A stretch of DNA of 64,000 nt from Blasia pusilla. Its lineage: Eukaryota. Positions 4,149 through 36,662 of this stretch are shown here, piece by piece. The notes beneath the pieces are model-generated. The model did no database searches and was not told the origin of the DNA. It saw only the letters and a program-made list of their open reading frames with translations. The stretch spans positions 12,400,001-12,464,000 of the forward strand of contig CM114271.1 of assembly GCA_050084515.1 (NCBI GenBank). The letters run 5' to 3'. Every line of letters starts with the position of its first letter. The stretch's first letter is position 1. The translations under genes were made by a program, and so were the position numbers.

Positions 4149-4476
4149 TCTATAATAGATCGATGGGATCTAGCAGAGCACCTTCGTGAGTAGTAGGGAA
4201 TATGCTTAGTAAGTGAGGATGACATGTTGAGGTCTAGGGAAACTTGAGAGAGTAGGTTTTCCCTTCGTTTCGGCTCATTTGGAGCCATGTTGAGGAACTT
4301 ACTATTTTAGGTAAGTACCAATTTAAGTATATATGATCGATTTTCTATTTTTGGTAAGTGGCCCTTGACCTCCTACATCAGGTCAAGAGCCAAAGAGATG
4401 ACTTGGGAGCATAGGTTACCATGGAGAGAGCTTGGGAGAGGGGAGGGGTATACCTCAAGGAGAGAGAGCTTGAGAG

Positions 4477-4668
4477 CTCATTCTCTCTTTGTTGAACCTC
4501 TTAGCATAAGGCGGTGGAGCTATTCTCCCTTGCCTTGTGAGTGTAACCCAAGCCTCTCATTAGGAGAGTGGGTTTGGTTTGACATGAGAGAGAGTGCACA
4601 CCTTTGAGAGCTATGGTGTGAGATGGTGTAGAGAGAGATTGGATCTTACTTTACAAAGAGAGAATGAG
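4477..4668 (+). promoter_or_regulatory. Putative self-priming pair (transcript 5' end / PBS)
   Basis: CTCATTCTCTCTTTGT 4477-4492 is the perfect reverse complement of ACAAAGAGAGAATGAG 4653-4668, which lies just after block A. Confidence 0.6.
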
Positions 4669-6480
4669 AGAATGAGAGAGTGAGAGAGCTTCATGGAAGA
4701 GCTCGCTCATCACTCGCTATTTTTGCAGGTTGGGGACTGTGTTCCCCGTTCAGCAGCTCATGGGAGTGCTCACCGGAGCAAGGGCTGCTTTGATTGTTAT
4801 TTGCATTTGCCGATTTTTCGTGTGGAAGAGTGGCGCGCGGAAGCGTTGCCCAATTTCTGATAGGGATTGATTTTGGGGGCGGGTTTCCCCATACCGGCGC
4901 CCTTCGGAGCACCATGTAGCTTGTTGATTTGTATTTTTACAAGTTTGACATTTTTGTCGGGAGAAATCAGCGCGGAAGCGTTGCCAAATTTTGTGGAGGA
5001 GAAAGAGACATTGGGCTTTACAACAGTCTGTTTGTTTCTATTAAAATATTTGATTCTAAATGTTTTTTGACGCTCTTGTAAATCGTGAAGTTGTGCACGC
5101 TGTAAAATAAACAGTGCGCCATTTGGAGTTGCAAGAAAAAAAGTTATGGTCAATCTTGCAAAGGTGCCATTGCTAGGCGATTCTTAGGGTTAAATTGTTC
5201 AAACCCTAAACCAGTTGCCATGCCTACGGCGGCCGTCGCCATCATAGTCATCGTCAATGATCCGATGTCGATGGTCAATTGTTACCATCAACGGTCCACC
5301 GTCCGTTGTCCACCCTTTGGTTGCCATTGCAGCCATTACGGAGTGGAGGGTCTTCCACGATGTTCGTTGATTCTCTGACTTGCGTCGCCACCACTTACTT
5401 TGTTTTGGATGCCACCATCATCGCAATTTTTTCATCAACCAATAATGGAAGATGACCTCCGGTTATGGTATTTGAGTTTTGATTTCATGCTGCTATGTTG
5501 TGATTGGTAGCCGCTTGACGACGATCGAGTATTGTGCCGTGACGCCCGTAGCCGCAACGCGCCGCCGATTGCTGCGTTGTGCGGCTCGTGGCCGCACCGC
5601 ACTGTCTCAATCACGGAACCGCTCCTTCACTAAGGAGCAAAGCATGTGAATTTTTGAGTGAGGAGGATATGCCGCTGAGTACTGCACCCCATTCCCGAGA
5701 GCCATGCTATTTGTAGCCGTTCTGTGCCGCACATCGAGGAGGTTGAGCAGCATCAGTACGAGAGGAGTATGACTTGCTGATTGGAGGAGTTGTCGTCATG
5801 ACTGAGTTGGGATCAAGATTTTCACTTGCTGAGGAGTGACATCAACATGTCTTAAGGTTACCCATTCTGGTCCTTTACCCTGCACGTGTGAGGGATTTTG
5901 GAAGTTGGGTAGTTTATTTGGGGATATTGGGTTGTGTGGATGCTGAGAGCATCATTCATGTATGTGGTTTAGGGGACATAGACCTGTGTGGGATGTCCGG
6001 AGTTGAGGGTAGGTTGTCAATGAGATGATAACATGGTTGATTTGTCGCACCACGCCGCGTGTTGCCGCACGTTACACGTCTCGGACAGGGAGAGTGTAGA
6101 TCGAGTGCCGCATGTTTGGGATGAGTGATTGAAGGATTACTTGCAAGGTTGAGAGTGATCGGGTGAGAGAGGTACGAGGGTCATCACGACGTCCGTTTGG
6201 TACTTTGAGAGGCAAGGTGGTGAACCCAAGAGTAGTTCTTGAGGTTTTACCCGGAGTGGCGCGAGGTTCCGAGGGTCTCCACGTGAGGGACCACCTCAAC
6301 CTCCTTCTATGTCATCGTCACACGAGGGGGAGGGTGTAGAAGAGTTTGTGAGCATATTGCCACATATTGTGCGTGATCCTACCAGTTGGGCATACGAGAT
6401 GGATGATCGGGGTAGAGGACCGCGTACGTTTTCAGATGCAGTAGGCACGATAGGGTTGCACGATTTCATAGCAGAGTTTA

Positions 6481-7468
6481 TGTCGTGCGCCTACTCTCCT
6501 TGAATGTCCATCTCTAGTATTGCGGAAGCGTACGTTCAGTAGGACACGCTCTCATCGCCGACCTGCACCCAAACGCTCTCACATTAGTCTCACTTTGGGT
6601 CAAGCGGCCTTCCAACCCATTGAGTTCTCAACTCGGCATCTTATCAAGCTCAACCTTCCTTACTTTCTAGGTTCCCAACATGGCAAGTCCTTCAAGACTT
6701 GGAACAGACTTTTTCGTTAGTCGAGATCCTAAAATGGCAACTACGCGCCTAGCCGTTCCAACTGTTCAACGGACCTCGTGCGAGTTCCTAACGGGGACCC
6801 AAGTAATTGAGTCGCGGGTTGGAATCCAAAAGGGATCTCTAAAAATCACCTCAATAGACTTGGTTCATGTTTTCAAGCCCAACTCCAAACTCTTGATCCG
6901 TTCCAAGCCCTTGAGCCGCCTCCTGGCGCCCAAAGTGGGGTTCGAGTCCCAAGCACCCTTGGAGACCTTTCCCCTTACTAGTACTTGGGGATCTCCAAAC
7001 ACCCCTTACTTTTGGAAAAGGATGGTCGGACCCTTCATTGTGGCTCAACACGACTATACTTACAGTCATTTTCGGGTTGTTTCTCAGCCTCTACTTGTGC
7101 GTTTGCGGAGATCTTTAGTGGCTTTTAATAAGCTTTCCAACGCATCCTTACTCGTTCCAAACGCATCTTGGCGCTAAAAGTTATGGCCATAAATACAATT
7201 AGAAACTCTCAAACGCTAGTGGCGTCCCAAATCCAGATTTCCTTCCTTTGGCAACCCACTTCTTACACTTGACTCCTCTCAAGTCTTGATCCGTGTTTGG
7301 TCCAGGTTTCTCAGTCGCGAGCACAACATATGAAGCACGAAGCCTTGCTTGCGTCTCATCTCTTGTCTCTTCTCCGAGACCACTCCAACGCGCAAACCAT
7401 CTTAGCGTGAGCCTGCTAGTGTTCCGATGTTCCGCTTTGGCGCTCGTTTGGTCATGAGGATCGCGACA
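6481..7468 (-). repeat. 3' LTR of the chromovirus
   Basis: Direct repeat of 12785-13786; adjacent to the PPT. Confidence 0.95.
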
Positions 7469-8158
7469 CTCACTCCTCTTTAGAGGTTGATGCCCTCATC
7501 AATGCAAACCTTTGTTATGTGAAGTCTCCTGGGCAGCCTACCTCTTGACATCAAATTGCGTTCTTGTGGCTAACCCGCAATTCCTCTTTAAGTCTCAAGT
7601 TGTCGCTTTGTAACACTTAGAAGTATTAGCATCTCCTCTTCGATAAGCCTGGACGTGTACCGAAGAACTAATCTATCAAATAGACTAACTAATTATGCAC
7701 CTTAGACTATTCTTGCTCACTCTCGTAAACATCCCACCTGTTTATACGGTCCACAAATCGTACTATTATTGGGTCGCTCTCGTATTCGACTTAGGCGCGT
7801 CACTACGTTTACTTATGTAGCCACAAGTAAGATCACCCGAAGCCCCAATACAGATTCATCTGCCCCGCCAACGCTAGGGCGAGCCTGAGTGTCATCCAAC
7901 ACTGGTCTTGTTCTAGGTGCTTATCCAAATACGAGCTCCCACCTCAAATACTCCTTGTCTCTCCTCTTGACTTACATCCTAAGCATATGATGAACGACTC
8001 ATAGCCATGCACTACCACATACAAATTGCAATGAAACACTAGCATCGAATCTCCAAATCCATGCATTCCTTTATTGCAACACTAGCCTGTTCTAGTTACA
8101 ACGGCATTCGGCCCAAGATTCCTATGGTCACAAGTTATGTCTTTAGCTTCTCCGCCTA

Positions 8159-9481
8159 CTAGCGTATGTGCTTCTCCTGCGTCCGCTTGAAGTCTCGCAA
8201 CACCTCTTGCGCGTGTTCCAAATCTGCCTCCGCAATCCAAGTTGCCTCCTTCACATGGTAGCCCTTCCATTTAACCAAGTACTCGTTCTTGTTGGCCCGA
8301 CGCCTTGAACGCAAGATGGTCTCCACCTCGAACTCCGGTTCTTCATCCACGATTACCGGTTGCGGTCTCAACACTTGTCTCCGCTTGAAACGCCCATTAT
8401 CTTGAAGATATTTTTTCAACAATGGCACATGAAAGGTCGGGTGAATCTTGAACTCGTCCGGCAGCTGCGATGTAAACACGTCCTCAAACGGGTTTGCCAT
8501 AATCACATACGGTCCAGCATACTTGGCAGATAGCTTTGCAGACAACTCTTTTGGCAGAGTGAGATTCTTCACACTCAACCATACTTGCTCTCCAACTTGG
8601 AATCGTACTTGGCGCCGACTCTTGTTAGCATGCTTAACGTACCTCATTTGAGCCTTTTCAAGACTTCGCCTTGCTCGCTCTTCCCATTCTTGCATCTCTA
8701 CTAACAAACCTTCTGCCCTTGCTTGTCGTGTCCGTACCAATGTAGAACCCTTCGAAAGGGCTAGGTCAAGAGGCCCTTCTGGCTCTCGTCCATTTTCCAG
8801 GAGAAACGGAGATTCTCTAGCTGCAGAATGCTTGGTCGAGTTGTAGCAGTACTCTGCGATGCTTAGCCACTTGACTGAATCTCGTTGATCCACACTCACA
8901 TAATTCCTAAAGTATTGATTCATGATCGAATTTACCTTTTCAGTTTGCCCATCCGTTTGTGGATGGAAGGAAGTGGTGAAACTCAACTTGGTCTTAAATT
9001 TTGTGAATAAGTGCTTCCAAAAAGCACTGGTAAACTTTGGATCTCGATCTGAAACAATACTCCTTGACAAACCGTGAGTCTGCCACCAGCCATCCAGGAA
9101 CAATTGCGCAATCGTATAAGCTGTTGCGGAATCCACCGTCAGCACCAATCTCACCAACTTGCTAAACCGATCCACAATCACAAGTATAGCATTGTATCCC
9201 TCAGATTCCGGAAGACTCGTGATGAAATCCATACTCACACTTTGCAAGGGTCCTTCTGGAATCGGCAAGGGATGCAACATGCCTTGTCTCTTATCATAAG
9301 AAACTTTGTTTGCTTGGCAGATCACACAGGTCTTTACATATTGAGCTACATCCTCTTTCATGTTGGGCCAGAAGAACCGCTTAGACAGAACAACCAACGT
9401 AGATTTCTCTCCTTTATGTCCTGCCAAGGGTCGGTCATGACATTCCACTAACACCTTAGTCCGCATCCTGCCTTGCCCCAC
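8159..9481 (-). pseudogene. Integrase plus C-terminal chromodomain
   Basis: HDRPLAGH..CVIC zinc finger; SMDF / SDRD / GQTE DDE; AGPY (GPY/F); FEVETIL..EYLVKWKGY..EATW chromodomain. Confidence 0.95.
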
Positions 9482-9504
9482 ATAGATCCTGCTCTGCTTG
9501 AACC

Positions 9505-11000
9505 TTAGTTAACCTGCCTCAAACTTATGTGGGCCACCTTCTCACCTTGCTTCGACCTCTTCAGAAACTCCAATGCTAGGTCGTCTCTCATGTATCCCTC
9601 ACGAATCCTTCTCTCCAGATCTGTTTCCTTAGGGAACATTGCTCTCAAGACCTGTGTCATCAATGGCATGTGTTCCTCCTTGCGACTCAACGCATCTAGA
9701 ATCACATTATCTTTACCTGGCTTGTGAAACAACTCAACATTCATCAACGCCAAGGTATCATGCCATCGCAGTTGTTTCGATATCACTCGATCCTGGGTCT
9801 CAAAATACTTGAGCGATATGTAATCCGTGAACACTCGAGTTTTTTGAAGTCCCAAATAGTGACGCCACTTCCTCAAACAATGGACCACCGTAAAAAACTC
9901 TTTCTCATGAGTAGGCCATCTTCTTTGAGTGTCGCTAAGCTTCTTGCTCTTGTATGCTACAGGTCTCCCTTCTTGCACCAACATTCTTGCAATTGCGAAA
10001 TCACTAGCATCAGTATGCACCTTGAATGGTTTGTCATACTCTGGCAGCTTCAGTACTGGTTCCTGCGATAGAATCTGCTTCACTCGGTTGAACATCTCAT
10101 TAACTTCTTGGGTCCATGTCGTGTTGGCACACTTTGTTGTCCAATACGTAAGAGAGCTCACAATTCCAAAAAAGTTCCTCACATAAGTGCGATAGAACTG
10201 CACCGCACCTATGAACCTCCTCATCCCCTTTACGGTGGACGGCGGTTCCCACTCGGCAATTTCTTTCACCTTCTCCATGTCTGGACTGACTCCATCTGTG
10301 CTAACCACATGACCCAAGAATTTGATCTTGCTCAACCCGAATTCACTCTTCTCTACATTCGCATACAGCTGATTCGCCCTTAGTTTTGACAAAACCGCTC
10401 TCACATGTCGAGCGTGCTCCTCTAGCGACTTCGAATATATAAATATATCATCAATGTACATGATCACATACTCATCCGTCTCCTTGTGAAAAATGGAGTT
10501 CATCAATGTGGTGAACGTTGGAGGCGCATTGCATAGACCGAAAGGCATCACTACAAACTCAAAGGATCCATATCTTGTCCTGCTCGCAGTCTTCACATCT
10601 GCCTCAGCAATCCGGATCTGGTAATAGGTAATATCTTGACTTCAAGTCAATCCTACTAAAGTATCTCGTGCCTGCCAACCTATCAAAGAGATCATCTATC
10701 CTCAGAAGAGGTTAGTTATTTCAAACTGTCACTTTATTCAGCGCACGATAATCAACACACAACCTCATCTTCCCATCCTTCTTTTTCACAAAGAGAACGA
10801 GTGCTCCATAAGGTGACTTGCTAGTCTTAATGTAACCCTTTTCCAAGAGCTCACTTAACTGCCTTTTTAACTCAAGAAGTTCTTCTTGATTCAACCTATA
10901 TGGTGCCTTGGAAGGCGGTTGGGAACTAGGTATGATCTCTATCTTATGATCGAGTGCTCTATGCGGCGGCAACTCAGTTGGAAGCTCATTTGTCAAGACA
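9505..11000 (-). pseudogene. Reverse transcriptase and RNase H (frameshifted)
   Basis: [48 protein letters not shown]. Confidence 0.95.
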
Positions 11001-12701
11001 TCCTTAAACTCATTGACCACTTCCTGAAGTAGTGTTGGGGTTCCCCTTGAAGTAGTGTCTTGATCTCTGCGTATTTTGCTTGTAGTCTCCTCCACTTGTC
11101 TCATCAAGGAGAGAAATTCATCCTCTAACTCGGTCATGCTCCTCCTTGTAATAGTATTCACCAACTCCTTTTTCACCGGAACCTCACAAACCAACCGCAT
11201 ATGCACCCGTTTGCCTTTCAGCAAGACGCTCAACCTCAATGGTCTACGTCTTAACTCCACCTCATACGTGTCCACAAATGTATTCCCCAAGACTCCGTCA
11301 ATGCCATCCATCTCGCACACAGTGAAATTCTCCTTCAACTCGAATACTCCGCATCCTATGGTTGAACCCAAGACCAACTTGGAAGTCCGATGAGACTTGC
11401 CTCCGGCAAATCCCACTCAAATGGGCTCGTCCGCCTTAGAGGTGGACAAACCCAGCTCCTTAAGGATTCTCGGGCTTAGGAAGGAGTGCAAAGCACCTGT
11501 ATCCATGAGCAACAACATATCACAATCAGCAATCTTGGATCTTAGGTACACCAAATTAGGCGTCCTCTTGGAGACCTGAAGGGACGTCTCGAGACCACCT
11601 ACCGACAAGTGCTTAGCAGCAAACTCAATCATACTCCCATTACTAACCTTCGGTTTTGAGCACCCTTTCGCCATGTGTCCAGGCTCGCCACAGTTGTAGC
11701 ATATGACCTTGCCGTTTCTTGACTTAGAATGTTGTCCTCCTCTTGGCTTCGCATGAAGTTCCACTCATTTTGTTGCCGTGGCAAGCGACTCTCCTTGGTC
11801 GCGTGAGCCCCCACTCCAGACTCTCTTGGATGTTTCCTTATTTTTTGCATTCTTCGAAAAACCTTTTGACTCAAAGAGCTTTTGAGTTTGAACTTCATCG
11901 TCCCACATCCGCTCGAGTAGCTTTAGAAGGTCTGCATAGGTATCTAGCAATGCCGGCATTCGGTAAAGGGCCTTTTCAGCACTCGGTTTAAGTCCGCTAA
12001 TGAAGATAGCCTTCTTCGCGTGCTCATCCATTTTAGGAAGAGAAGTCAGTTTCGCACTAAACTCCCTCACGTAAGCGCTTAAGGAACCACTCTGCCGCAA
12101 CCGTATGCATTCCACCGTGTCGCGCAACCCTTGGTACTCCAAAGTCAATCAATCACCAATAAACACCTTAAACTCCTCCCAACTCAAGGGTGACTCGCCA
12201 GCCAGATGTTCCTCTTATTGAGCTTTCCACCACTGTAGCGCATGATCTTTTAAGAAAGTAACGGCCACCGTCACCTTGTCCTGCTCAACTGCCCTTGGCG
12301 CCTTGAAGTATAGTTCCAGCTCCGTAAGGAAATCCTTCACTTTCCGAGAACGCCCCACCCCCACTGAATGGCGTGGGCAGGTTTGTCTTGCAAAGCTTTT
12401 TGCCAGCACCCAGGGTTCGGTCTGCCTCTAGCTCTGCAATCCGCTTGCTTTGCTGGGACATATGCTCTACCAACAACTTCAACAAGTCCAACATCTGACT
12501 TGACTCAGTTGGTTCCTCTGAGTTTGGAGCTGATGGCCCCGCTGAAGGATTTTCCTCTGGAACATCCTCATGTCTGGCGTTCAGCTCTTTGGGAGTCTCC
12601 GTCTCCTCCATAGCTTCACGGTCCGGCATTGGTTCGACTCTCGGTTCACGTCGCTTGATTAAGTGCTTCTTGGGTTTGTCTCCCTCGATCGCTATCTTCA
12701 A
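11001..12701 (-). pseudogene. gag (CCHC knuckle) and aspartic protease
   Basis: FLKDHALQWW, LRQSGSLSAYVREF, CYNCGEPGHMAKGC, LLMDTGALHSF; several stops. Confidence 0.9.
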
Positions 12702-12784
12702 GCCGCCTCACTCAGATCTCCAACTTGTTTCTTCCGTCCCTCCTCGAGCATCTTGGCCTAACCGCTACCTTGAGTTTCCACAAG

Positions 12785-13786
12785 CGTCATGCGCCTACTC
12801 TCCTTAAACGTCAATCTCTAGTATTGCGGAAGCGTACGTTCAGTAGGACACGCTCTCATCGCCGACCTGCACCCAAACGCACTCACATTAGTCTCGCTTT
12901 GGGTCAAGCGGCCTTCCAACCCATCGAGTTCTCAACTCGGCATCTTATCAAGCTCAACCTTCCTTACTTCCTAGGTTCCCAACATGGCAAGTCCTTCAAG
13001 ACGTCGAACAGACTTTCTGATTAGTCCAGGAACCTAAAATGGCAATTGCGTGCCTAGCCGTTCCAACTGTTCAATGGACCTCTTGCAAGTTCCTAACGGG
13101 GACCCAAGTAATTGAGTTGTGGGTTGGAATCCAAGAGGGATCTTTAAAAATCACCTCAATAGATTTGGTTCATGTTTTCAAGCCCAACTGCAAACTCCTG
13201 ATCCGTCCAAGCCCTTGAGCTGCCCCGTGGCATCCAAAGTGGGGTTCGAGTCCCAAGCACCCTTGGAGACCTTCCCCCTTACTAGTACTTCTGGGGATCT
13301 CCAAACACCCCTTACTTTTGGAAAAGGATGGTCGGACCCTTCATTGTGGCCCTCAACGCGACTATACTTATAGTCGTTTTCGGGTTGTTTCTCAGCCTCT
13401 ACTTATGCGTTTGCAAAAATCTTTAGTGCGTCTAAAGTAACTTTTAATAAGATTTCCAACGCATCCTTACTCGTCCCAAACGCGTCTTGGCGCTAAAAGT
13501 TATGGCCATAAATACAGTCGGAAACTCTCAAACGCTAGTGGCGTCCCAAATCCAGATTTCCTTCCTTTGGCAACCCACTTCCTACACTTGACTCCTCTCA
13601 AGTCTTGATCCGCGTTTGGTCCAGGTTTCTCAGTCGCGAGCACAACATATGAAGCGTGAAGCTTTGCTTGGGTCTCGTCTCTTGTCTCTTCTCCGTGACC
13701 ACTCCAACGCGCGAACCATCTTAGCGTGAGCCTACTAGTGTTCTGATGTTCCGCTTTGGCACTTGTTTGGTCATGAGGTCACGACA
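12785..13786 (-). repeat. 5' LTR of the chromovirus
   Basis: Direct repeat of 6481-7468. Confidence 0.95.
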
Positions 13787-14479
13787 ATTTAGGACTTGGT
13801 GTGACTTCCAACGGGCCAGGAACTCTCGAGAGTTCAGCTGGTTTACAACATGAAACGGTATGTTCCAGCATTTAGAGGGGGCACCCATGGACGATTACCA
13901 TGAGTTCTCCCATAGATATGCCGAGGAGATTGAGGCATGGAGACTCTACTATGACCCACACTATGTGTCATGGACGGAGCCGTTCCTAGATGAGGAGGAG
14001 GAGTCTGGAGAGGCTACTTACTGTTCCATTTATGATGTTTAAGGAGGGGTCACTCGCACTGGAGCAGTTGCACCATCTAGTTGGGTTCGTCCCAAGTTCA
14101 ACCCTGTGGTTGAGTTCTTTGCTGAGATCAGGGCGAGCTACTAGGGGTACGGACGGAAAAGTTGCGGAGCATCCACGACTTCTAGAGGCACCCAGGTGAG
14201 AGTTTGTGTGAGGCTTACACTTGCTTGCGCCAATTGATCAACGTCACTTAAGGGGTGACAGAGGCTTAGGCTATGGAGTCATGGTACGCGATGCTGGACC
14301 GGACCCTACAGACATGGGTGCGGGAGGGGTGCTTCTTATGAACACCTCCCCTACGTTGAGAGATGTTCTTAGGACTGCCAAGAACATTGAGCGCAACATG
14401 GCAGAGGAGAGCGTAGCCACCATGGATTCTCGGCAAGAGCAGTCACGATTGGCTGCACCACCTATGGACGGCCACCGTT

Positions 14480-15540
14480 GTGTACCCCACTCCTTTATTT
14501 TCTGCTTCTGATGTTATGATGTTGGGGGTTACGCCCACCGAGGCTCTTCGACTGCCCGCTTCATTATATGAGTGCGGAGTTGGAGTTTCTGCATCACATT
14601 CAGAGGTGATTATAGAGGAGGTGATGGTCTTGCCCTTGGAGCGGATGCTCGAGCCGTCCACGTCAGATTCATGGCAGGCTACGGCTGCAAGGATGGCGGA
14701 GATGCCCGCTAGATCCACGGTAGAGCATGCCATGGCTTCTCCTGGTATTGTGTTGCTGGATAACCAAGGAGAGGTCTTCCAATTGGTTAGTCTCGGAGGT
14801 AGAGCTTTTAGTCCACAACGCGTCTTGTTGGATTCAAGAACGCAACCCCTAATGTTGGGGAAAGCGTCATTAAGAGGATTGGGCTTCACGAGGGCCGATG
14901 TGGAGCGTTGTTCGTTCCAGATACAGACATCCTTGGGTGGAGCAAGTACCACACAGTATATCACCCAACAAGAGGTCGTGGTGAGGATTCGCCCGGGACA
15001 TCCTATAGATGAGTCCATGGTACGAGCCAAGGCGATAGTGACTGATGTAGAGTCGTACGACGTCTTGGCTGGTGGAGCAGTGTTAATTCTGATGGGGTTT
15101 TCCCTGGATTACTGGGAGGAGTCAGCGTCCTATAGTCCAGGATGGCAGCCAGGTGATGGGCGCCTTAGCTCATTACCCGTTCGATTCACAGGTGTAGTGA
15201 TCGAGCGACGGCCAGGAGAGGTGGCGAACTCAGCAGCATTTAGCAGTGCCATCACTTGGCCTAATGATTTGATTGAGGGACATATCCATGCACAGGATAC
15301 TCCCGTTTCTGACATTTCTATGGAGAGGAGTGTTATGGTAGCCGCATCATTCTGTGGAGGAGAGGTGTTGTTGTGGGGCTCAACTGAGGAGCTTCGACGA
15401 TTGGAAGAAGAGCACGTGCAGACCGCGTGGAGCGAGACGTTTGCATCAGAGCGTGACGGATCTGAGGAACCTGAGGTAGCAGGGAGTGCTACGATGACAC
15501 CCTTGGATACCACACCCATTGTGTGGTGTATCCAAGAGGA
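14480..15540 (+). pseudogene. Retropepsin-like protease and linker
   Basis: RVLLDSRTQPLMLG (VLLDSGAQPLILG in the family II copy) and YDVLAG. Confidence 0.8.
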
Positions 15541-16490
15541 GGGTATTTGAGTGTTAGATCTCTTTGGAGGGATTAGCACCGGGTTAGCTGTTGTTTTGCA
15601 AGGAGTGCTAGTGCAGCAATACCTATATGTGGAGAGTAATGATGTTGCAAGGCGCGTCTCACTACAACATGTGGCGCAGTTACGCCTAGATTTTCTTGAC
15701 TTATTGTCTGCATCTACGGTACATGGGTACCAGAGTTCCCTATGGAGGGATATTTTGTTGCTGGAGGCGCATGATTTAGAGTTTAGGAACCATTGATTTG
15801 GTCATTGCCGGTTGGCCATCTCAGGGCCAATCGAATGTTGGACGAGGCAACGGGTTGGCTGACACTCGGTCCATGTTGTTTTGGGAAATGTTGAGGGTCT
15901 TACGACAGTTGTAGGAGCACCAGTCTTGTTCTCCAACCTACATTATGGAGAATGTGCCAATCTTAGGAGACTCCAAGTCATGGGTGGTGACGAGTGCTCA
16001 TCAGCAGTGTTCTTGGATGCGGCGAGTGTAAGTTCTAGAGCCCATCGCCTGAGTCTATGGTGGACCAACTTGGTGCCCCATGCAGTGTTACGGAGGGCGT
16101 ATGCGAGAGTGGAGCGTCCCTCCCATTTGTTAGTGGATCCCATTCTGGATCCAAGTTGTCGGTCACAGGAAGTGAGGCACAATGATCGATCACCGTTGAA
16201 TGTGGTCAAGAGGGTAGGCAGGCCGCGGGCAACGTTGCCCACGTTTGTGAGTTTTCCCGCTTCCTATGCATACAAGGAGGCCAGTCCTGGCTTGGTTTGG
16301 GATGACCAAGTTGAGCGGTTGGTGGAACCCAACGCCGACGAGAGAGAGCGAGCGATGGGATTTCCCACAAGAGTGACGGCAGCACCGTCAATTTCAGAGG
16401 CATCACGACGCCATGTCTTGGGTCATGCTATGGACCTAAACTGTTTGACATTGATCCTTAGCTTGGGAGTGGCTGAGCAGCGCCGTATGA
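15541..16490 (+). pseudogene. DNMT3-like C5 cytosine methyltransferase domain inside pol
   Basis: Motif I VLDLFGGISTG; II YVE; IV DLVIAGWPSQG (~15795-15826); VI YIMENVP (~15940-15960); VIII AHRLSLWWTNL; IX ERERAMGFP; X RRHVLGHAMD. Confidence 0.9.
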
Positions 16491-16780
16491 GATCGCGATA
16501 GATCACTGTGGTTGCATTGGTGAGCCCCATGCCTACCGAGACAGTGGAGGCAATGGTTGGGGGCGAGACTCGAGGAGATCTCCACACCAGGGGAGATCCG
16601 GAGAGACACCCTTGGACTTCTTGGGATGTTTTGCAGGTACGCAAGGAGATGATAGCCACATCATCGAGCGTGGTTCTAGGCACTACACATGGAGGAGACC
16701 AAAGTTTGCATTTGGCTGCGGGAGAGCGGCCGAGTGTTGTTGTTTGAGACGGAGTTGCACCATAGCAACCACCGATACCC

Positions 16781-18235
16781 GTGCCGCAGAGTCCTACCAT
16801 AGTCACGATGGAGACTTGGGAGCCAAATATGGGCCCTAAGTTGATAGGAGGAGAGCGGCGCCGGATACATCACTTCCTCAGGAGTTATAGGAGTTGCTTT
16901 GCGTTTAGCATGGAGGATTTGGGTATGCTGAAGGGACCGGGGATCCACATTGAGTTGTCAAGTGATACGCCACTCTTCCCACGACCCTATAAGTATAGTG
17001 ATATGGAGAGGGATCAGATTCAAAGAAGGAGCGAGGACTTGGTCGGAGGAGGACTAGTAGAGATGTCTCATGGGGAGTATGCATCTGCTAGTGTCATGCT
17101 CACCAAGAAGGATGTGCATGGCAACTGGATAGATAGGCGGATGTGTGGGGATAGTTTGATAGGTATGCCATGCCTACCCGTGAGGAGATCTTTGATGCGA
17201 TTGGTCACGTAAAGGTCTTCAGTTCATTTGATTTGCGAGCCGAATACCATCAGCTGCCTATCAGATTGGAGGATAGGCAGGAGACGGAATTTTGGGGCAT
17301 CGATCCTCACGGGAAGGATTGTTTGTACCAGTGGCCGTTCTTACCATTTGGGTTAAAGAACGCCCCAACAGAGTTTCAGAGGGTCATAGATAAGATCTTG
17401 GCTCGTCTGGATTTTGCTAGGTGTTATATTGATGACATTGTAGTCTTTAGCGCCACGGTTGAGGAGCATGAGCGACATCTAGAGGAGGTGTTTCGACGAT
17501 TGCAATTACATGGGCTGAAGCTAGATACAGGCAAGTGCAAGTTCTTCTACGACCAGATTGAGTACTTGGGTCATACAATATACCCAGGGGGCTTGGTATT
17601 CAGCAGACGAAGGTAGAGGCTATCTCATGCATTCCACGCCCTAAAGGTGTGATCCGTGTTCGCGTATTCATGGGATTGGCGAACTTCTATCGACGGTACG
17701 TCAAGGGATTCAGTTTGATTGCAAAACCGCTAACCTTGCTGACCAAGATGGATCACGAGTGGCACTTGGGGGATGAGCAAGAGCAAGCATTTCAGTTGCT
17801 CAAGGATAGGTTGACGTCCGCGCCTATCTTGAGGAGACTGATCAGGGGGCGTCCTTTCCAGTTGCACACAGATTGGAGCATGTTGGGGCTTGGAGCGGTG
17901 CTCACCCAACATGATGATGAGGGTAGAGAGTTTGTGGTGGCTTACGGTAGCTGCTCAAAAAATGCTGCAGAGGTGAAGTACAGCTCGTATGAGGGTGAGT
18001 GGTGGCTGCAGTATGGACTTTCGCGCATTTCAGCTGTTACTTATTTGGCATACCCTTTACCATCATCACTAATCATCAACCATTGAAGTGGTTGATGGAG
18101 TCCGAAAAGCTTACAAGGAAACTTGCGAGATGGGCTCTGTTGTTGCAGGAGTATGATTTTCAAGTGGTACATAGACCTGGGACGCTCAACGAGGATGCAC
18201 ATGGGTTGAGTCGTAACCCATGCCCGAGTCGATGA
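16781..18235 (+). pseudogene. Reverse transcriptase and RNase H
   Basis: RRMCGD, FDLRAEYHQ, LPFGLKNAP, CYIDDIVVFS, LHTDWS, LARWALLLQEYDF..HRPG. Confidence 0.95.
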
Positions 18236-18436: not shown

Positions 18437-19848
18437 TTGGAGTATCTTCGTATCGGCAGCGTTGCAAGCACCATGGGTGCTAGAGAGGGGGATTGGATCC
18501 TACAGCAGGCCAGACAGTTCCGTTGGGAGGGGACACATGTTTTGAGGGTTTGGGAGGATGGTAGAGTAAGCGTAGTGCCGCATCGTTTGCAGAGAGCACG
18601 ACTAGTGCAGCATGCCCATGAGGTCACTTTGGGATGAAGAAGACGTACAACTTGCTCCAGATTCAGTATTGGTGGCGAGGCATGCAGACTGACATTCAAC
18701 AGTTTGTTGCCAGGTGCATGGTGTGTGATCGGGTCCGAGCATCGTTCAATGCTCTGATTCCACAATTGCATCCATTACCGATCATGGGCTTAGGGTATAG
18801 ATGGAGTTTGGATTTTGCAGGACCTCTGCCTTTGACGGAGCGTCACAGTTGTTATGTGTTGGTGATAGTCGAGCTCTTCTCGAAGTGGATCGAGTTCGTT
18901 GCATTGCCTGACAAAGCGAATGAGGGAGTAGCTTATGCCTTCCTTGATAGAGTGTTGAGTCATTATGGTGCACCGGCTAAGGTGTTGACGGACCAGGATA
19001 CCAAGTTTTGCGGTGAGTTCCAGGCCTTGTGTGATGAGGCGCTGATCGACCATCGCACGACTTTGCAAGATCAACTTGAGGCGGATGGATTAGCGAAGAG
19101 AGTTGTGCAAACAGTGAAGAGGGGTCTATGCAAGTATGGCTTGCAGAGAGTTCACCTAGGAGATTGGGACCTCCAATTGTCGTGGTTGGCGATGGGATAC
19201 AGATTCAGCAAGAAGGCATCCTTAGTATCTTTTTCACCGTACTTGCTACTTTATGGCGGAGAGCCAGATTTACCTGCAGCCATTCATCGAGATGCTGGTG
19301 AGGTGCTGGACCTCGAGGACCTAGATGTATGGATGCAAGCATGTTGTCAGACGGCTGAGTTGTTTCAGAGAGTGATGCCGATGGCGTTCGAGAACTTGGC
19401 GATTGCGCAACAGCGGGATACGTTGAGGTATGCGACTATTCGGGGTGGTGGTTATCGACCAACTATCCATAGGTTTCATCAAGGAGATTATGTCTTCTTG
19501 CAACAGACGGCACCGACGAGGTTGGATGTGACTGTATGGCGCACTATCTTGAGAGTGCGTGACATTTTGCCATCCCGTGTTCTCTTGCTGGAGGGACGCA
19601 ATGGTATGGTATGGAAGGACCATGTGCGTGATTTTGCGCCATGTCACCTTGCTAACATTGATGGTACAATAGATCCGAGCTCACTAGTAGTTCCTACAGG
19701 CTTGCGTTGTATGTTGTGTGGTTCTGCTCGTGGTGCGGCCACGATGCTAGTCTGTGATGGATGTTCGAGAGGTTGGCATATGGCATGTCTGGCGCCACCT
19801 CTCACTAGGGTTCTTCGGGGATGATGGATATGTCCCTGATGTACATAG
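18437..19848 (+). pseudogene. DDE integrase with C-terminal PHD finger (19708-19842)
   Basis: HAH..CMVC, WSLDFAGP, LTDQ, ADGLA(E/K)R; C4HC3 CMLC..CDGCSRGWHMACLAPPL..WICP*C. Confidence 0.9.
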
Positions 19849-20025: not shown

Positions 20026-20336
20026 AGGGGGGCGATTGGAGATATTTTGGTACTTCTCGCCTCTGTGTATGGATGCCATGAGTTAGCATGGGATTGTGTG
20101 TGTTTGTGTGTGTGTTCGATGACAACGATGTATGTTGTGTTGCGATGTATATGCGCACGATAGGTGTCACGACTGTTAGGATATATTCTAGACCTACTTA
20201 ACACGTCCTCCACTACTCACGAAGGCACTCTGCTAGTTCCCACCGATCTATCCTACCTCGATCTACTGAGCACGTCCTCCACTACTCACGAAGGCGCTCT
20301 GCTAGATCCCACCAATCTATCCTAACAATCGTGACA
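20026..20336 (+). repeat. PPT (20026-20034), block B (20035-20162), GG, start of A (20165-20187), inverted A start (20190-20336)
   Basis: AGGGGGGCG; junction CGATA-GG-TGTCACG; 20190-20336 has two ~65-bp units that are reverse-complementary to 4154-4215 and to 37917-37975. Confidence 0.85.
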
Positions 20337-29306: not shown

Positions 29307-30115
29307 TGTCATGCGCATACATATCAATACACAACGTACATCGCTCGTCACATCTACACCACACAACACCGATCTTCCCCACACACGGGTCGATCCACAC
29401 ATGTACAAAAATCAACTCATACATATACATGGAGATCACACAACAAAAATAAAGAGTAGTAAAAACGGCACACCCGGCCTAAAACTCCACTCCTCAATCT
29501 ACATCGGCATATCTAGCCTCGTCCACCATGTGCTATCAAGGAATCCGGACGCTAGCACCCTAGTCCTAGCTCACACACATACAAGGGAGGTGCTCCAACG
29601 GCCCAACATGAGAAAGATGGCTTAGGAAAGCCATCTTCCTCTCTTATATAGGTTGGGAAGAGCCAAAAGGCTCTTCCCCTAAAAATAGCCCTTCCCTTGG
29701 TAACCTGCGTGCACAGGTTACCAGGGGCGGGTGACCTGGTCAACAAGTCATCCGGATGTACAAGACCTCAACATGAAAGTCGTCAGAAACGACGTTCCTG
29801 ACACAATAGACATATCCTCAACCTCATCCGACACTGTGGGACAAAGTTACACTCAAGATAGTCGGCTGGCTCCTACGCCCTATCCACGATAGATCTCGGC
29901 CTATCGGCTACTCAGATATGACAGCTGTCGTGCGCATACATCGCTCGTCACATCTACACCACACAACACCAATCTTCCCCACACACGGGTCGATCCACAC
30001 ATGTACAAAAATCAACTCATACATATACATGGAGATCACACAACCGCCTCCCTAGCTGGCAGTTGGATCCCCCTAACTCCAGATAGAAAATATCACATAT
30101 CTCTGACATGACCTA

Positions 30116-31450
30116 CTACCCTATACACATCTCGGACACATCTGCAGATCCGCACAACATACACCTCAAGCCTGCAGGTACCACTGCCAAGCTCGGATCC
30201 ACCGTCCCATCTACGTTCGGAAGATGACATGGCGCACAATTGCGCACATGATCCTTCCAAACCATACCATCCCGTCCCTCCAACATGAGGACTCCGGTCG
30301 GTAATACCTCGCGCACACATAGGATCGTGCGCCCTGTAGTGACATCTAGCGTCGTGGGTGCCGCCTGCTATAAATACACGTAATCTCCAGGATGAAACCT
30401 CCTAATCCCTGGACGATAACCTCCTCCACGAATGGTCGCGTACCTCAATGTATCTCTATGTTGGGCAATAGCTAAGTTCTCAAAGGCCATAGGCATAACT
30501 CTACGAAAAACTTCTGCCCTCTGAGAACATGCTTGAACCCACACCTCTGGATCATCAAGATCTAACACCTCCGCCATGTCACGTCGAATCGCTGCAGGTA
30601 AATCAGGCTCTCTCCCAAAGAGCAAAAAGTACGGTGAAAATGACGCCAAGGATGCCTGCCGACTAAAGCGATAACTCATAGCCAACCATGGCAATTGTAG
30701 GTCCCACTCCCTCAACTGTCCCCGCTGCAAGCCATACTTGCGCAATCCTCTCTTCACCGTCTGTACCACTCTCTCTGCCAACCCATCCGCCTGAGGATGA
30801 TCCCTGGACGTGGTGCGGTGATCTATCAACACCTGATCACACAAGGCCTGAAACTCTCCCCTGAACTCGGTACCCTGGTCAGTCAACACCTCCGCCGGTG
30901 CACCAAAGTGACTAAGCACACGATCTAGAAACGCATAAGTTCTTCCCTCGCTCGCCTTGTCTGGTAGTGCCACCAACTCTATCCACTTGGAGAAATGCTC
31001 CACCATGACCGACACGTACCTATGATGACGCACTGTCAATGGCAAAGGTCCCGCAAAGTCTAAACTCCACCGATAACCTAAACCCATAATCGACAAAGGA
31101 TGTAAGTGCGGAGTGGGAGCATTGAAGGATGCTCGCACTCTGTCACATACCATACATCTGGCCACAAACTACTGTACCCCAGTATGCATGCCGCGCCACC
31201 AATACTGAACCTGGAGTAAAATTTGTAAATGCACGCTTTACTCCGAAATGTCCCAACTCCTTATGGGCATGTCGCACTACACGTGCTCGCTGGGAAGGAT
31301 GAGGTACCACTCGTATCCTACCATCTCCCCATACCCACAAAATGTGAGTCCCCTCCCACCTGAACCTCTTGGCTCTCTGTAGGATCCGATCCCGCTCCCT
31401 AGCACTCACTGTAATTGCAATGACGTCAGTGCGCAAGAACTCCACAACCT
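30116..31450 (-). pseudogene. Integrase, with a PHD truncated after CMLC
   Basis: HAHKELGHFG, CMVC, WSLDFAGP, LTDQGTEF, ADGLAER; LRCMLCGSA then a deletion. Confidence 0.9.
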
Positions 31451-31619
31451 CCACGTCGTCATGGATATCACGACCACCTGTCGCCTCCTCACTAACCTCC
31501 GGATCCAAAGACTCATCATCCAATCCCACCACTAGAGTCATCACCTGTGGCTGACCTGCCATAGTTAACCAACAAAGATAGGCAGATGCATGCCAACCGG
31601 GCACCATCTCCTCATCACT

Positions 31620-32842
31620 CTCTCCGTGCCATCAAGCTCCCGTGACGTCTCTCTGACTCGGCTCAACCCATCCGCATCCTGGTTCAGCCGACCTGGCCTA
31701 TGAACCACCTCGAACTCATACTCTTGTAGTAATAGAGCCCACCTGGCAAGCTTTCCCGTAAGCTTGTCGGACTCCATCAACCACCTCAACGGCTGATGAT
31801 CAGTGATAAGTGTGAAAGGGTTGCCGAAAAAATAGCACCTTAAATGTGCCACGGCCCACACTGCAGCCAAGCACTCTCCCTCGTAGGAGTTGTACTTCGC
31901 CTCTGCAATGTTGTTCGATCGGCTTGCGTAAGCCACAACGAACTCCCTCTCCTCATCATCCCTCTGAGTAAGCACTGCTCCTAGACCCAACATGCTCTTA
32001 TCCGTATGTAACTGGAATGGGCGACCCCTAAACGGTCTCTGTAAAATGGGTGAGGACGTCAACCTGTCCTTGAGCTCCAGAAATGCTCGCTCTTGATCAT
32101 CTCCCCACAACCACACCTGATCAAGTCTCGTCAACAAGGTCAAAGACTTTGCGATCGCACTAAAACCCTTGACATACCGTCGATAGAAGTTTGCCAGTCC
32201 AAGAAATGCTCGGACTCGACTCACATCTGTATTTGGATTGAAGAGCTCCGCAGGCGCGTTCTTCAATCCAAATGGTAAGAACCGCCACTGATACAAGCAA
32301 TCTCTCCCGAACCGATCTATCCCCCAGAATGATGTCTTCTCTCCTGCCCTCCAACCTGATAGGGAAGCGATGATAGCCAAAGACGGAGATCTAAAGTACT
32401 GAAGATCTTTGCATGCCCTACCGCATCAAAGATATCCTCAGGAGTAGGCATGGCATACCGATCTGACCTCGTCTGTCGGTTGATAGGACGGTAATCTCCA
32501 CACATCCGCCTATCCGTCCAATTGCCAAACATATCCTTCTTCGCCGGCATGACTGTGGCATATGCATACTCCCCACGTGATAACTCCACAAGTCCTGCCT
32601 CCAACAAGTCCTGACTCCTACTTTGAATCAAGGCTCGCTCCATATCAGAATACCTGTAGCTAGGGTCGACGAAAGATTGGCGTATCACTAGCCAACTCAA
32701 TCCGTATCCCGGGACCCTTTAGCGTACCCAAGTCTATCATACTGAAGGCAAAACAACTGACATGCCCTCTCAAAAACCTATGAACTCGCCGTCGCTCTCC
32801 TCCTATCAACTTGAGACCTATCACAGGCTCCCAAGTCTCCAT
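31620..32842 (-). pseudogene. RT (YxDD segment deleted) and RNase H
   Basis: RRMCGDYRPIN, FSTLDLR; LPFGLKNAPAE joined directly to RVRAFLGLANFYRR; FQLHTD. Confidence 0.9.
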
Positions 32843-33129
32843 CGTGACCTCACTCGGAGAGGACGCAACCTCCGGCTTTGGTTGCTATGTAGCAACCCTA
32901 GCCACCTCCGCAACAGCCACTCCACTCTGACCTCCTACACCATGCTCCACATCCAAAAAATGAATATGTCCTACTCTAGCCGCCTTCGCACTCTCTGCTT
33001 GAACAACGTCCCAGGAAGTCCATGGGTGCCTATCTCTCCTCGTCTCGCCCCCAGCCAATGCCTGTACAGACCCTGTAGGCAGTGGTCCAACTCGTGGACG
33101 TGACGGCATGGATGACACTCGCATCCGTC

Positions 33130-34060
33130 TCTGCTCAGCCATACCTAGGCTGACTATCCATGTGAGACAGTTGAGGTCCATCGCCTGCCCCAACACCTGT
33201 CTCCGTGATGCCTCAGTCATCCCTAGCACCGCCGTAGTACCGGAAGTGAACCCCATGGCGCGCTTGCGCTCATCTGCTGTAGGCTCCTCCAATACTCCGG
33301 TCACCTCATCCCAAATCATGCCTAGCCCTCCCTGACGAAAGGCATGGGATGCTGGGAAGCTCACCAACGTAGGTAAGGCTGCCCTCAACTCCCCCACCCT
33401 ATTGGCCGTGGCCAACGGTGGTCTATCATCGCGTGTCACCACCTGAGATTGAGGCCCTGAGTCCAAAATAGCATCCACTGTGAGATGTGGTGCTCTTTGG
33501 ACTCCACTGTAGGCTCGACTCAGTACCTGATGGTATCAGGTTCGTCCACCACAGTCGTGGACGATGGGCACGTGACCCAACTCTCGCTGCATCAAACAAC
33601 ACAGCAGGTCCCAACCAGGACCTCACCTGATGTACACTTGTCATCACACGTGCACGAGTATCTCCCAACAACGACTCTCCTGCAAGTGTTGTACTACTCG
33701 CAGCATCTCCCAAAACATCCCTGACCTCGGATCCTGCAATCCAAATCCTCGGCCAGCTGATGAATGACCCTGACATGGCCATCCAGCAATCACCAAATGA
33801 ATGGTGCCAACTCTATCCACATCCTGCGCCCCCACCAAAGATATGTCGACGGGTAGCGTATGCTGGTATCCCCGTACTGCAGATACCGACAACAACTCAG
33901 GATACCTCTGGACCAATCTCGCCACATGACGTAATGATACTCCCCGCGCGGTCTCATCTCTCTCCACATAAAGGTACTGACGCACCCGCATGCCCGCTTG
34001 CAATACTGCAGCCAATCCGGTGTTAATCCCTCCGAAGAGATCTAACACCCTAACACCCTC
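33130..34060 (-). pseudogene. DNMT3-like C5 methyltransferase domain
   Basis: VRVLDLFGGINTG, YVERD, LVIAGWPCQG (catalytic PC intact), AHRPRLWWTNL, ERKRAMGF, RRQVLGQAMD; the ENV segment is deleted. Confidence 0.9.
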
Positions 34061-34489: not shown

Positions 34490-35294
34490 CTAGAAGTCAA
34501 GGATGAATCCTAGGGGATATAACACTGTACTCCCAATCAACACATCGTACGACTCAGCTGGTGTCGTAATCACACGTGTGCGCACCATAGCACTATCTGT
34601 CGCATGCTTTGGCTGGACTCTGACAACAATCTCCTGTCGAGTCATATACTGAGTGGGTGATACGCCCCCAATCGAGGTCTGTATTTGGAAGGGACAAGGC
34701 TCAATGTCGGCCTTCTGTAACCCCAATGCTAAACACGCCGCCTTCCCTAATATCAAGGGTTGCGCTCCTGAATCAAGTAGGACGCGCTGCGGGTGGTATA
34801 CTGTCCCCGTCGGACTAACCAAGTGAAATACTCCAGCTCGGTTATCCAGTAACACTACTCCAGGTGTCACCACTGCTCGCTCTATGGCCGGTCGAGCTGG
34901 CATATCTACCAACTTTGTCGCCGCCGCATGCCATGACTTTGTGGGGAACGTCCCAAGCACCGGGTCTGAGGGCAAGTCCACCACCTCCTCAACTAAACTC
35001 TTGGATGAAATCATCTAAGTCGATGGTGCCCACTGCACCCGAGAAATGACGCATGCCCCGATGGCCCATGTCGTCCATCTCCTGCCAAGTACTACTGTCT
35101 CTGTCGGTGATCTCGTCACCAGACCCAGTGTCCACTGATGACGATCCAGTCACGGAGGGATGTCGAGGGAGCTCCTCACTGGTAACCCCTCGGTATCTCA
35201 CTCCACTCCGTGTCACACCACTACCACTACTCACACTACCCCGTTCTTCTGAACCCTGGAAGAACGCCGTGATGACAAACCCTGTCTCACCCAC
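34490..35294 (-). pseudogene. gag N-terminus fused by deletion to the protease
   Basis: DFIQEF (~35000) joined to EEVVDLP; VLLDSGAQ, YDVLIG. Confidence 0.8.
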
Positions 35295-36442: not shown

Positions 36443-36662
36443 CATCTTTCTCATGTAAAAATAAAGAGTAGTAAAAATGGCACGCCCGGCCTAAAACTCC
36501 ACTCCTCAATCTACATCGGCATATCGAGCCTCGTCCACGCTCTGCTATCAAGGAATCCGGACGCTAGCACCCTAGTCCTAGCTCACACACATACAAGGGA
36601 GGTGCTCCAACGGCCCAACATGAGAAAGATGGCTTAGGAAAGCCATCTTCCTCTCTTATATA
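36443..36662 (-). promoter_or_regulatory. TATA box, predicted TSS and self-priming PBS
   Basis: TATATAA at 36662-36656; 31 nt downstream is CATCTTTCTCATGT (36631-36618), complementary to ACATGAGAAAGATG (36456-36443), which abuts A1. Confidence 0.65.

Follow-up and report, generated by a model that had tools for sequence, protein, structure and literature searches.

Two dead Ty3/Gypsy copies with a DNMT3-type cytosine methyltransferase domain in a 64-kb stretch of Blasia pusilla DNA

Cytosine methylation is the main weapon of the host against transposons, so a transposon lineage that keeps a de novo methyltransferase of its own under selection poses a puzzle. This puzzle has so far rested on one charophyte and on dinoflagellates. 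For the charophyte Klebsormidium nitens, the element KnitGypsy-Dnmt3 was described in 2018, and its copies were placed within DNMT3 in the tree of that paper (de Mendoza et al., PMC5890265). The same paper describes SymbioDIRS-Dnmt3 from Symbiodinium, which methylates CG de novo in yeast and is an independent acquisition according to the authors. Here, a stretch of 64,000 nucleotides from Blasia pusilla was analyzed (GCA_050084515.1, contig CM114271.1, positions 12,400,001 to 12,464,000 of the forward strand; referred to as the window). It is eukaryotic sequence crowded with nested retroelements and contains two broken Ty3/Gypsy copies, A and B, with a methyltransferase domain. It is likely that these are dead members of a lineage that carries its own DNMT3-type enzyme, expresses a second open reading frame (ORF2) from behind a leaky UAG, methylates its own DNA and steers its integration by means of a PHD finger.

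KnitGypsy-Dnmt3 as published shares with the window copies an intronless, non-permuted DNMT3-type domain in the coding region of a streptophyte Gypsy element with long terminal repeats (LTRs), and purifying selection on this domain (Ka/Ks < 0.2 in the paper, 0.10-0.18 here; PMC5890265). It differs in two respects. The paper places the acquisition in the K. nitens lineage, whereas the relatives found here belong to bryophytes, Closterium and Haematococcus; and the figure legend indicates a DIRS-like repeat structure, whereas copy B has plain direct LTRs (PMC5890265). The two are set side by side by published description and not by sequence; no K. nitens sequence was among the 62, 41 and 120 proteins listed in our searches, which were taken up by members of the element family. 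SymbioDIRS-Dnmt3 likewise is a retrotransposon-encoded DNMT3-type domain, but it resides in a DIRS element with a tyrosine recombinase instead of an LTR/integrase element, and its host is a dinoflagellate (PMC5890265). With these two descriptions from 2018 in print, the concept is not new, as the first-pass annotation of the window had stated. Later papers mention "streptophytes (Gypsy-DNMT3)" (bioRxiv 10.64898/2026.05.21.726589, PMC12344493). In the full-text literature, no report of such elements in bryophytes or chlorophytes was found, although supplements may list more species. Likewise, no report was found there of two domain orders, of a stop-codon junction or of an integrase PHD finger, part of which the figures and supplements of 2018 and 2025 may cover. 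Added here are the position of the methyltransferase at the end of the first open reading frame (ORF1) and a conserved in-frame TAG-CAR-YYN before ORF2.

The methyltransferase domain and its closest relatives

The ORF1 of an intact relative (locus L039) was used as a tblastn query and detected exactly two methyltransferase-bearing stretches in the window. Residues 648-1260 matched 14642-16483 on the plus strand, and residues 667-1260 matched 34912-33128 on the minus strand. The first stretch belongs to copy A (family I, about 14.2-20.2 kb, plus strand) and the second one to copy B (family II, 29.4-36.9 kb, minus strand). In self-BLAST comparisons, the DNA of the two copies is 65% identical over the methyltransferase domain and 72-74% identical over reverse transcriptase (RT) and integrase; they are therefore representatives of two diverged families. 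Read from stop to stop, the frames of 14417-19824 begin with a protease-like region and the methyltransferase, which are followed by RT, RNase H, integrase and a PHD finger. Both copies are Ty3/Gypsy elements: the domain order protease, RT, RNase H, integrase is present, and copy B has direct LTRs. The components are the following.

Copy A (family I)
4218..6279, plus strand: 5' part, an LTR-like repeat (4218-4640) followed by degenerate gag; severed from the remainder by a nested element (self-BLAST)
14159..15550, plus strand: end of gag and protease region, with LLDSRT where copy B has LLDSGA (tblastn, translation)
15551..16501, plus strand: DNMT3-type C5 methyltransferase domain, broken (three-frame translation; PF00145, 30.0 bits)
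16763..16771, plus strand: stop codon of ORF1 and its context, TAG CAA CCA; RT follows in the same frame
16766..18235, plus strand: RT and RNase H, in pieces (PF00078, 95.8 bits; PF17919, 72.2 bits; tblastn)
18622..19824, plus strand: integrase (H2C2 zinc-binding part and core) and a truncated C-terminal PHD finger at about 19708-19806 (PF17921, 49.6 bits; PF00665, 47.1 bits; PF00628, 29.9 bits)
20035..20160, plus strand: terminal 126-base repeat unit, matching 46920-47043 in direct and 4027-4148 in inverted orientation (self-BLAST)

Copy B (family II)
36457..36938, minus strand: 5' LTR, 95.4% identical to 29445-29926 over 482 bases (self-BLAST)
34490..35014, minus strand: protease region (VLLDSGAQPLILGK; translation, tblastn)
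33128..34060, minus strand: DNMT3-type methyltransferase domain, broken (translation; PF00145, 33.3 bits)
32879..32887, minus strand: stop codon of ORF1 and its context, TAG CAA CCA; RT follows in the same frame
30116..32884, minus strand: fragmented RT, RNase H and integrase; of the PHD finger, only its beginning is present (translation; tblastn of the L039 ORF2)
29445..29926, minus strand: 3' LTR (self-BLAST); loose ends of reads at 29445 (546) and 29923 (512) mark the edges of the repeat

Three-frame translation of 15500-16560 yielded the motifs of copy A in the expected order: VLDLFGGISTG (motif I, from 15551), GWPSQG (IV) and YIMENVP (VI), followed by AHRLSLWWTNL, ADERERAMGFP and SRRHVLGHAMDLN, the last of which ends at about 16483. 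The domain is distributed over three frame pieces with internal stops (15551-15796, 15798-16028 and 15863-16501); in-frame stops end at 15550, 15796, 15914, 16501 and 16747, and the frame changes near 15795 and 15988. In motif IV, a Ser replaces the catalytic Cys. Copy B contains VLDLFGGINTG, an intact GWPCQG, AHRPRLWWTNL, ERKRAMGF and RRQVLGQAMDLN, and lacks ENV. Its motifs I-IV are intact in the ORF 34138-33644; a deletion at 33673 removes motif VI, and the frame changes beyond this position.

The Pfam family PF00145 (cut-off 22 bits) matched two of four pieces from the window, one in each copy. The copy B ORF 34138-33644 scored 33.3 bits (E 4.7e-8), and copy A 15798-16028, with an X at the internal stop, scored 30.0 bits (E 4.6e-7). 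The two longest methyltransferase pieces of copy A alone had no Pfam match at E<=1; only pieces that hold motifs IV-VI reach PF00145. Among database relatives, six of the eight scanned matched this family. The intact L039 ORF1 scored 51.1 bits.

These results agree with most of what the first-pass annotation had read from the letters. Translations, PF00145 matches above the cut-off in both copies and the 65% DNA identity confirm methyltransferase motifs in order, collinear with pol, in two diverged families. PC is intact in family II (GWPCQG in copy B) and ENV in family I (YIMENVP in copy A). Both copies are indeed dead, as indicated by in-frame stops, frame changes and the loss of one catalytic motif in each. 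The proposed resemblance to DNMT3, with an order of motifs that is not permuted as in DRM, was examined by two further comparisons.

A profile of the family was built from ten intact relatives and searched against all PDB sequences. DNMT3A was matched with E 3e-17 and DNMT3B and DNMT3C with about 1e-15, as compared to 6e-7 for HaeIII, 7e-7 for tobacco DRM, 1e-4 for HhaI, 2e-3 for DRM2 and 0.02 for DNMT2. The matched stretches, which comprise motif I, motifs IV-VIII and motifs IX-X, align to residues 6-38, 59-172 and 236-265 of DNMT3A. All three are collinear with DNMT3A; therefore the order is not permuted, unlike that of DRM. In addition, an AlphaFold2 model of a 368-residue relative was calculated from 31 aligned sequences (predicted local distance difference test, pLDDT, 89.3; predicted template modelling score, pTM, 0.89). 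When this model was compared to the PDB by means of Foldseek, every chain listed to rank 49 was DNMT3A, DNMT3B or DNMT3C; the best match had E 2e-20 and a template modelling (TM) score of 0.83 on the target, and the identity to DNMT3 chains was 20-23%. A look-up in the ESM Atlas returned generic PF00145 clusters only. By sequence and modelled structure, the domain is a C5 methyltransferase of the DNMT3 type with a DNMT3-like fold, closest to DNMT3 among the solved methyltransferases.

With the cellular enzymes DNMT3A, DNMT3B and DNMT3C the domain thus shares the best sequence and fold matches, the order of motifs and DNMT3-like motifs I, VIII and IX-X. It differs from them by its location in a Gag-protease polyprotein and by the lack of an adjacent PWWP or ADD domain: Pfam found only the protease and PF00145 in the whole L039 ORF1. 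The sole module that resembles a histone reader, the PHD finger, is attached to the integrase in the other ORF. Such reader domains are no defining mark of the DNMT3 family, because many DNMT3s lack companion domains according to a survey of 2025 (PMC12344493).

The enzyme might act on RNA instead of DNA and deposit 5-methylcytosine on the genomic RNA of the element or on a tRNA primer, comparable to the methylation of tRNA by DNMT2. This has to be considered because the enzyme is made as part of an RNA-binding Gag polyprotein, its domain being encoded in ORF1 together with gag. Moreover, de Mendoza et al. raise RNA methylation for a DNMT borne by a LINE element, and in yeast they saw no DNA methylation by the K. 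nitens domain (PMC5890265). The gap between DNMT3A (3e-17) and DNMT2 (0.02) and the exclusive occurrence of DNMT3 chains to rank 49 of the Foldseek list argue against an RNA target, which we consider improbable.

None of the 31 aligned domains departs from the Cys of PC, the Glu-Asn pair of ENV or the HR.R residues His and Arg, and the glycine-rich loop of motif I is conserved in the family. The set of catalytic motifs is therefore complete at the level of the family and incomplete in each window copy (Ser for Cys in A, no ENV in B). A catalytically silent scaffold in the manner of DNMT3L, which would recruit or modulate host methyltransferases, would fit the inactivity of the K. nitens domain in yeast (PMC5890265). 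The invariant residues, the conserved motif I loop and the retention of Cys and ENV by sibling copies (see below) stand against it and render a scaffold very improbable.

Selection was assessed from the ratio of nonsynonymous to synonymous substitutions (dN/dS), which was determined with a script for the method of Nei and Gojobori (NG86). For the methyltransferase, dN/dS was 0.14 for the pair L039-L041 (dS 0.25) and 0.10-0.18 in five more pairs between lineages. The near-identical dead copies L004 and L006 (dS 0.06) gave 0.83, which is expected for copies that decay after insertion. For ORF2, two pairs gave 0.055-0.059 and a third, short pair gave 0.34. Between window copies A and B, the methyltransferase had a dN/dS of about 0.18 and the RT/RNase H/integrase region one of about 0.10; both are rough estimates, as the synonymous sites are saturated. 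Two trees of element members without outgroup were calculated, one for the methyltransferase (58 rows; quick search, with support from the Shimodaira-Hasegawa-like approximate likelihood ratio test only) and one for RT/RNase H (28 rows). Both displayed the same major split and the same subclades. These sequence comparisons indicate that the methyltransferase is under purifying selection and co-diverges with RT.

The same data bear on the possibility that the domain is a recently captured fragment of a host DNMT3 that drifts neutrally in both copies. Such a capture would fit the broken state of both window copies and the lack of one catalytic motif in each. It is contradicted by the dN/dS values of 0.10-0.18, by co-divergence with RT, by the domain being in frame in intact relatives, by its occurrence in elements of bryophytes, Closterium and Haematococcus, and by a read depth equal to that of RT and integrase across about 1000 copies (see below); its probability is close to nil. 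The first-pass annotation had named a neutral, out-of-frame capture, or the lack of a PF00145 hit, as outcomes that would overturn its proposal. The measured selection, intact relatives such as L039 and the PF00145 matches point the opposite way.

The junction between ORF1 and ORF2

Among 63 metagenome loci that encode a relative, the matched stretch lies in one open frame in 16 and is broken in 47. At L039, the coding region is apparently whole: an ORF1 of 1369 residues is followed by a TAG and, in the same frame, by an ORF2 of 1047 residues. ORF1 contains a protease motif (22.4 bits, just below the cut-off of 24.3) and the methyltransferase; ORF2 contains RT, RNase H, integrase and a PHD finger (residues 990-1034). 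No direct repeats were found within the 9317 bases of this locus, probably because the contig ends inside the element. The layout of the intact relatives is accordingly gag-protease-methyltransferase in ORF1, a UAG in a CAR-YYN context, and RT-RNase H-integrase-PHD in ORF2. In many database proteins, the chain likewise stops at this position, soon after the methyltransferase; one tail is common to five Marchantia proteins and another one to ten unnamed proteins. The domain had been described as embedded in pol between protease and RT. Its position between these two domains is correct, but it forms the C-terminal part of ORF1, and a conserved stop codon separates it from the RT-encoding ORF; there is thus no continuous pol that encloses it.

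ORF2 follows directly after the ORF1 stop and in the same frame at L039, L038, L024, L041, L056 and L058 (all TAG) and at L006 (TAA). The same holds for the TAG CAA CCA of both window copies, where the TAG directly precedes the conserved N-terminus of RT. Fourteen junctions from about eight lineages were aligned. Of these 14 stops, 13 are TAG and one, in a dead copy, is TAA; CAA or CAG comes next in 13, and the third codon is YYN in all 14 and YYA in nine, while the codons on either side vary. Nine junctions fit UAG-CAR-YYA in full, and all 14 fit CAR-YYN or differ from it by one base. Besides the window copies, this junction was seen at loci L001, L004, L006, L024, L028, L036, L038, L039, L041, L056, L058 and L059. 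No conserved start codon was seen at the beginning of ORF2 by eye.

In gammaretroviruses, Gag-UAG-Pol is translated by readthrough. The elements resemble these viruses and the tobamoviruses in having an in-frame UAG between an upstream structural ORF and a polymerase ORF. They differ from the gammaretroviral arrangement in that the stop follows protease and methyltransferase, not gag directly, and in that neither a pseudoknot nor a stem was detected downstream. Readthrough of the tobamovirus type uses the motif UAG-CAR-YYA (PMC3542737), and the six bases after the stop at the element junctions fit or nearly fit this consensus. These sequence features suggest that ORF2 is produced by occasional readthrough of a leaky UAG.

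Alternatively, the TAG could be a true terminator, and RT and integrase could be translated from another RNA (spliced or subgenomic) or after re-initiation. This would be in line with the lack of a conserved RNA structure after the stop: RNAalifold predicted three pairs with -0.45 kcal/mol and no covariation. Two RNA-only joints inside the element (16928-17974 and 17664-17697) and relatives such as P0064, in which protease, methyltransferase and RT form one uninterrupted protein, also speak for it. On the other hand, ORF2 is directly in frame after the stop in both copies and in the seven readable loci, TAG and CAR are each kept in 13 of 14 junctions despite variable flanking codons, and ORF2 has no conserved start codon. 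Termination at the TAG is for these reasons judged unlikely, although it keeps appreciable weight. The missing stem fits a signal that depends on the codon context only, and readthrough remains the preferred explanation.

Distribution, abundance and proposed role

Relatives of the protease-methyltransferase-RT type include many "hypothetical proteins" of Marchantia polymorpha and proteins of Calypogeia fissa, Sphagnum troendelagicum, S. jensenii, S. tenellum and S. fallax; a Closterium relative is more distant (42-43% identity). In the methyltransferase tree, both window copies fall into a clade of 21 rows (support 100) together with proteins of Marchantia, Calypogeia and Sphagnum. They lie near its base and not beside any named species. 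This clade lends indirect support to the earlier suggestion that the lineage extends into land plants.

A second domain order, RT-RNase H-methyltransferase-integrase-PHD in one long ORF, was found in 39 of 41 long proteins and at locus L052 (2-4729). The proteins of this order (P0065-P0103) include P0087 and P0092 of the chlorophyte Haematococcus lacustris and many from unnamed contigs. They share with the window elements a homologous methyltransferase (35-45% identity), RT, RNase H, integrase and the C-terminal PHD finger of the integrase, but their methyltransferase follows RNase H instead of the protease. An exhaustive profile search yielded 624 clusters at 50% identity with E<=1e-30. Its 141 new representatives comprise 78 of the second order, 12 of the window order and 51 with the methyltransferase alone (mostly short). 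The second order is the commoner and more diverse one. The two orders are split with a support of 100 in the methyltransferase tree and of 82 and 90 in the RT tree. Judged by these sequences, the lineage is present in bryophytes, a zygnematophyte and a chlorophyte. In a public source, one family member, P0114, is assigned to a Candidatus Obscuribacterales genome bin under the label DNA cytosine methyltransferase; it is probably eukaryotic DNA that was binned with a bacterium.

The abundance of both families was estimated from sequencing runs that carry the same species label (one of DNA, three of RNA) and were mapped on 14417-34300 at 90% likeness. Copy A was covered to a DNA depth of about 480-925 and copy B to one of about 730-1000; between the copies (20384-29002, 13 bins), the mean depth was about 0.7. 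The bins of the methyltransferase (476-742 in A, 726-829 in B) were as deep as those of RT and integrase. If 20384-29002 is single-copy, each family numbers on the order of 1000 copies with a likeness of 90% or more to the window copy. On the same assumption, a depth of about 0.7 from about 1970 million letters would correspond to a genome of a few gigabases. As many as 53205 of the 68250 DNA reads are only 90-95% alike to the window; therefore the window copies are old, diverged members of their families.

The reads from siblings complement the defects of the window copies. At the Ser codon of copy A (15820), 431 of 460 DNA reads and all 32 RNA reads encode Cys. At 33671-33675 of copy B, 266 DNA reads have 34-38 extra letters, which encode PAYILENV when read by eye on the minus strand, and at 33526 two extra letters occur in 328 of 518 reads. 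Since the sibling reads keep Cys and ENV, the complementary defects are private to the window copies.

The RNA reads were biased in direction. On copy A, the depth of first mates was 16-77 on the minus strand versus 0-7 in the other direction; on copy B the bias was reversed (1-18 versus 0-4), and it was consistent in all three runs. Opposite biases on oppositely oriented copies argue against a contamination with DNA. Under the usual convention for stranded libraries, both families are transcribed in sense direction, including the methyltransferase region. The lineage is old and still transcribed.

Joints seen only in RNA connect 16928 with 17974 (38 reads) and 17664 with 17697 (28 reads) on the plus strand, counted over the three runs; none occurred in the DNA run, whose sampling was thin. 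Spliced or deleted transcripts of siblings could account for them, as could expressed deletion derivatives.

The following mechanism is proposed. Occasional reading through the UAG would yield ORF2, so that Gag, protease and methyltransferase are made in excess over RT and integrase. If ORF2 depends on readthrough, the methyltransferase would then reach an abundance like that of Gag. After cleavage by the protease, the enzyme would carry out de novo methylation of element DNA, be it cDNA, possibly inside the particle as the first-pass annotation had proposed, or a copy that has just integrated, and new copies would then bear the methylation marks of the host. Conserved catalytic residues, a predicted DNMT3 fold and purifying selection point to an enzyme that is active as a DNA methyltransferase and contributes to the propagation of the element. 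De novo methylation of cDNA or of a fresh insertion, a reading that follows de Mendoza et al. (PMC5890265), would be its most economical role.

Among solved structures, the PHD finger of the integrase is closest to those of CHD4, PHF12, PHF21A, KDM5, KAT6A, ATXR5, UHRF1 and AIRE. PHD fingers of several such proteins read unmodified H3 tails. By analogy with chromodomain integrases, the PHD finger of the element may read histone H3 tails and steer integration. As in chromoviruses, a chromatin-reader module is fused to the C-terminus of the integrase; unlike there, it is a PHD finger and not a chromodomain.

Several observations weigh against the combination of readthrough, self-methylation and steered integration that we favor. 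In the only published assay of a Gypsy-borne DNMT3, the K. nitens domain produced no methylation in yeast; the authors called this result inconclusive because human DNMT3B also failed there (PMC5890265). Five of the 14 junctions have YYC or YYT and not YYA, and the conserved RNA structure after the stop is missing, as described above. Synonymous sites are saturated in the comparison of copies A and B. The term "sense" rests on the library convention, since the mapped stretch holds no host gene of known orientation. Finally, the likeness of most RNA reads to the window is only 90-95%, which means that they derive from sibling copies. With regard to self-methylation, the ratio of observed to expected CpG was uninformative (0.65-0.75 in the copies versus 0.73 in a nested element without methyltransferase).

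A more far-reaching reading is possible but tentative. It assumes that Gypsy-DNMT3, rather than being a peculiarity of Klebsormidium, is an ancient clade of green plants that combines a writer with a PHD reader. Its land-plant branch would have moved the writer to ORF1, in front of a leaky UAG, so that every particle would contain the methyltransferase in amounts like those of Gag. The branch would persist here with about 1000 copies per family and be transcribed; the enzyme would methylate new cDNA and insertions and possibly neighboring host DNA. If this were true, part of the bryophyte-type methylome would be written by transposon-encoded enzymes.

Gypsy-borne DNMT3 is widespread (624 clusters), reaches land plants, occurs in two domain orders and is abundant and transcribed here. 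Tractable systems, Marchantia above all, thereby become available for asking what a transposon gains from methylating DNA. With its TAG-CAR-YYN junction, a plant retrotransposon would allow virus-like readthrough of a stop codon to be tested directly. For annotation, it has to be considered that element copies will inflate the counts of DNMT genes in bryophyte genomes.

Boundaries of the copies and surrounding elements

Copy A is split by a further element:
6482..13786, minus strand: nested chromodomain-type Gypsy element without methyltransferase, splitting copy A

Its direct repeats (LTRs) at 6482-7468 and 12786-13786 are 92% identical (self-BLAST). The element is nearly intact; its long ORFs at 8159-12148 encode protease, RT and an integrase whose C-terminus looks chromodomain-like by eye.

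In the self-comparison, copy A displayed no direct repeat pair and no full 3' LTR but only the 5' repeat. The latter (4218-4640) has counterparts in another element, namely the direct repeats 38047-38462 and 46480-46905, and 4238-6279 together with 14159-14462 is collinear with 38047-40408 (self-BLAST). The protease of copy A was not called by Pfam. At the 3' side, loose ends of reads accumulate at 20035 (592) and 20160 (498), the high-copy sequence stops at 20160, and the depth is about 1 after 20383. In copy B, neither a tRNA-complementary site nor TG..CA ends could be assigned by eye at the LTR edges. At 30142, the loose ends of 559 reads indicate that sibling copies continue differently there.

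No recognisable conserved host gene was seen by eye among the ORFs of 47.9-64 kb. A further fragment of family II, consisting of a 5' LTR plus gag, lies at the start of the window (100-2858, minus strand). The element at 38047-46914 (plus strand) has family I-like LTRs (85% identical) and gag; its interior is different and rearranged, and contains an integrase piece on the minus strand (44983-45486). Satellite arrays with units of 113-116 bases (28635-29306, 36943-37896 and 47047-47923) directly flank copy B and the 38047-46914 element, and a 69-base tandem repeat follows copy A (20194-20324). Elsewhere in the genome, DNA reads link 20255 or 20325 to 29919. The families of copies A and B may insert repeatedly into the same repeats.

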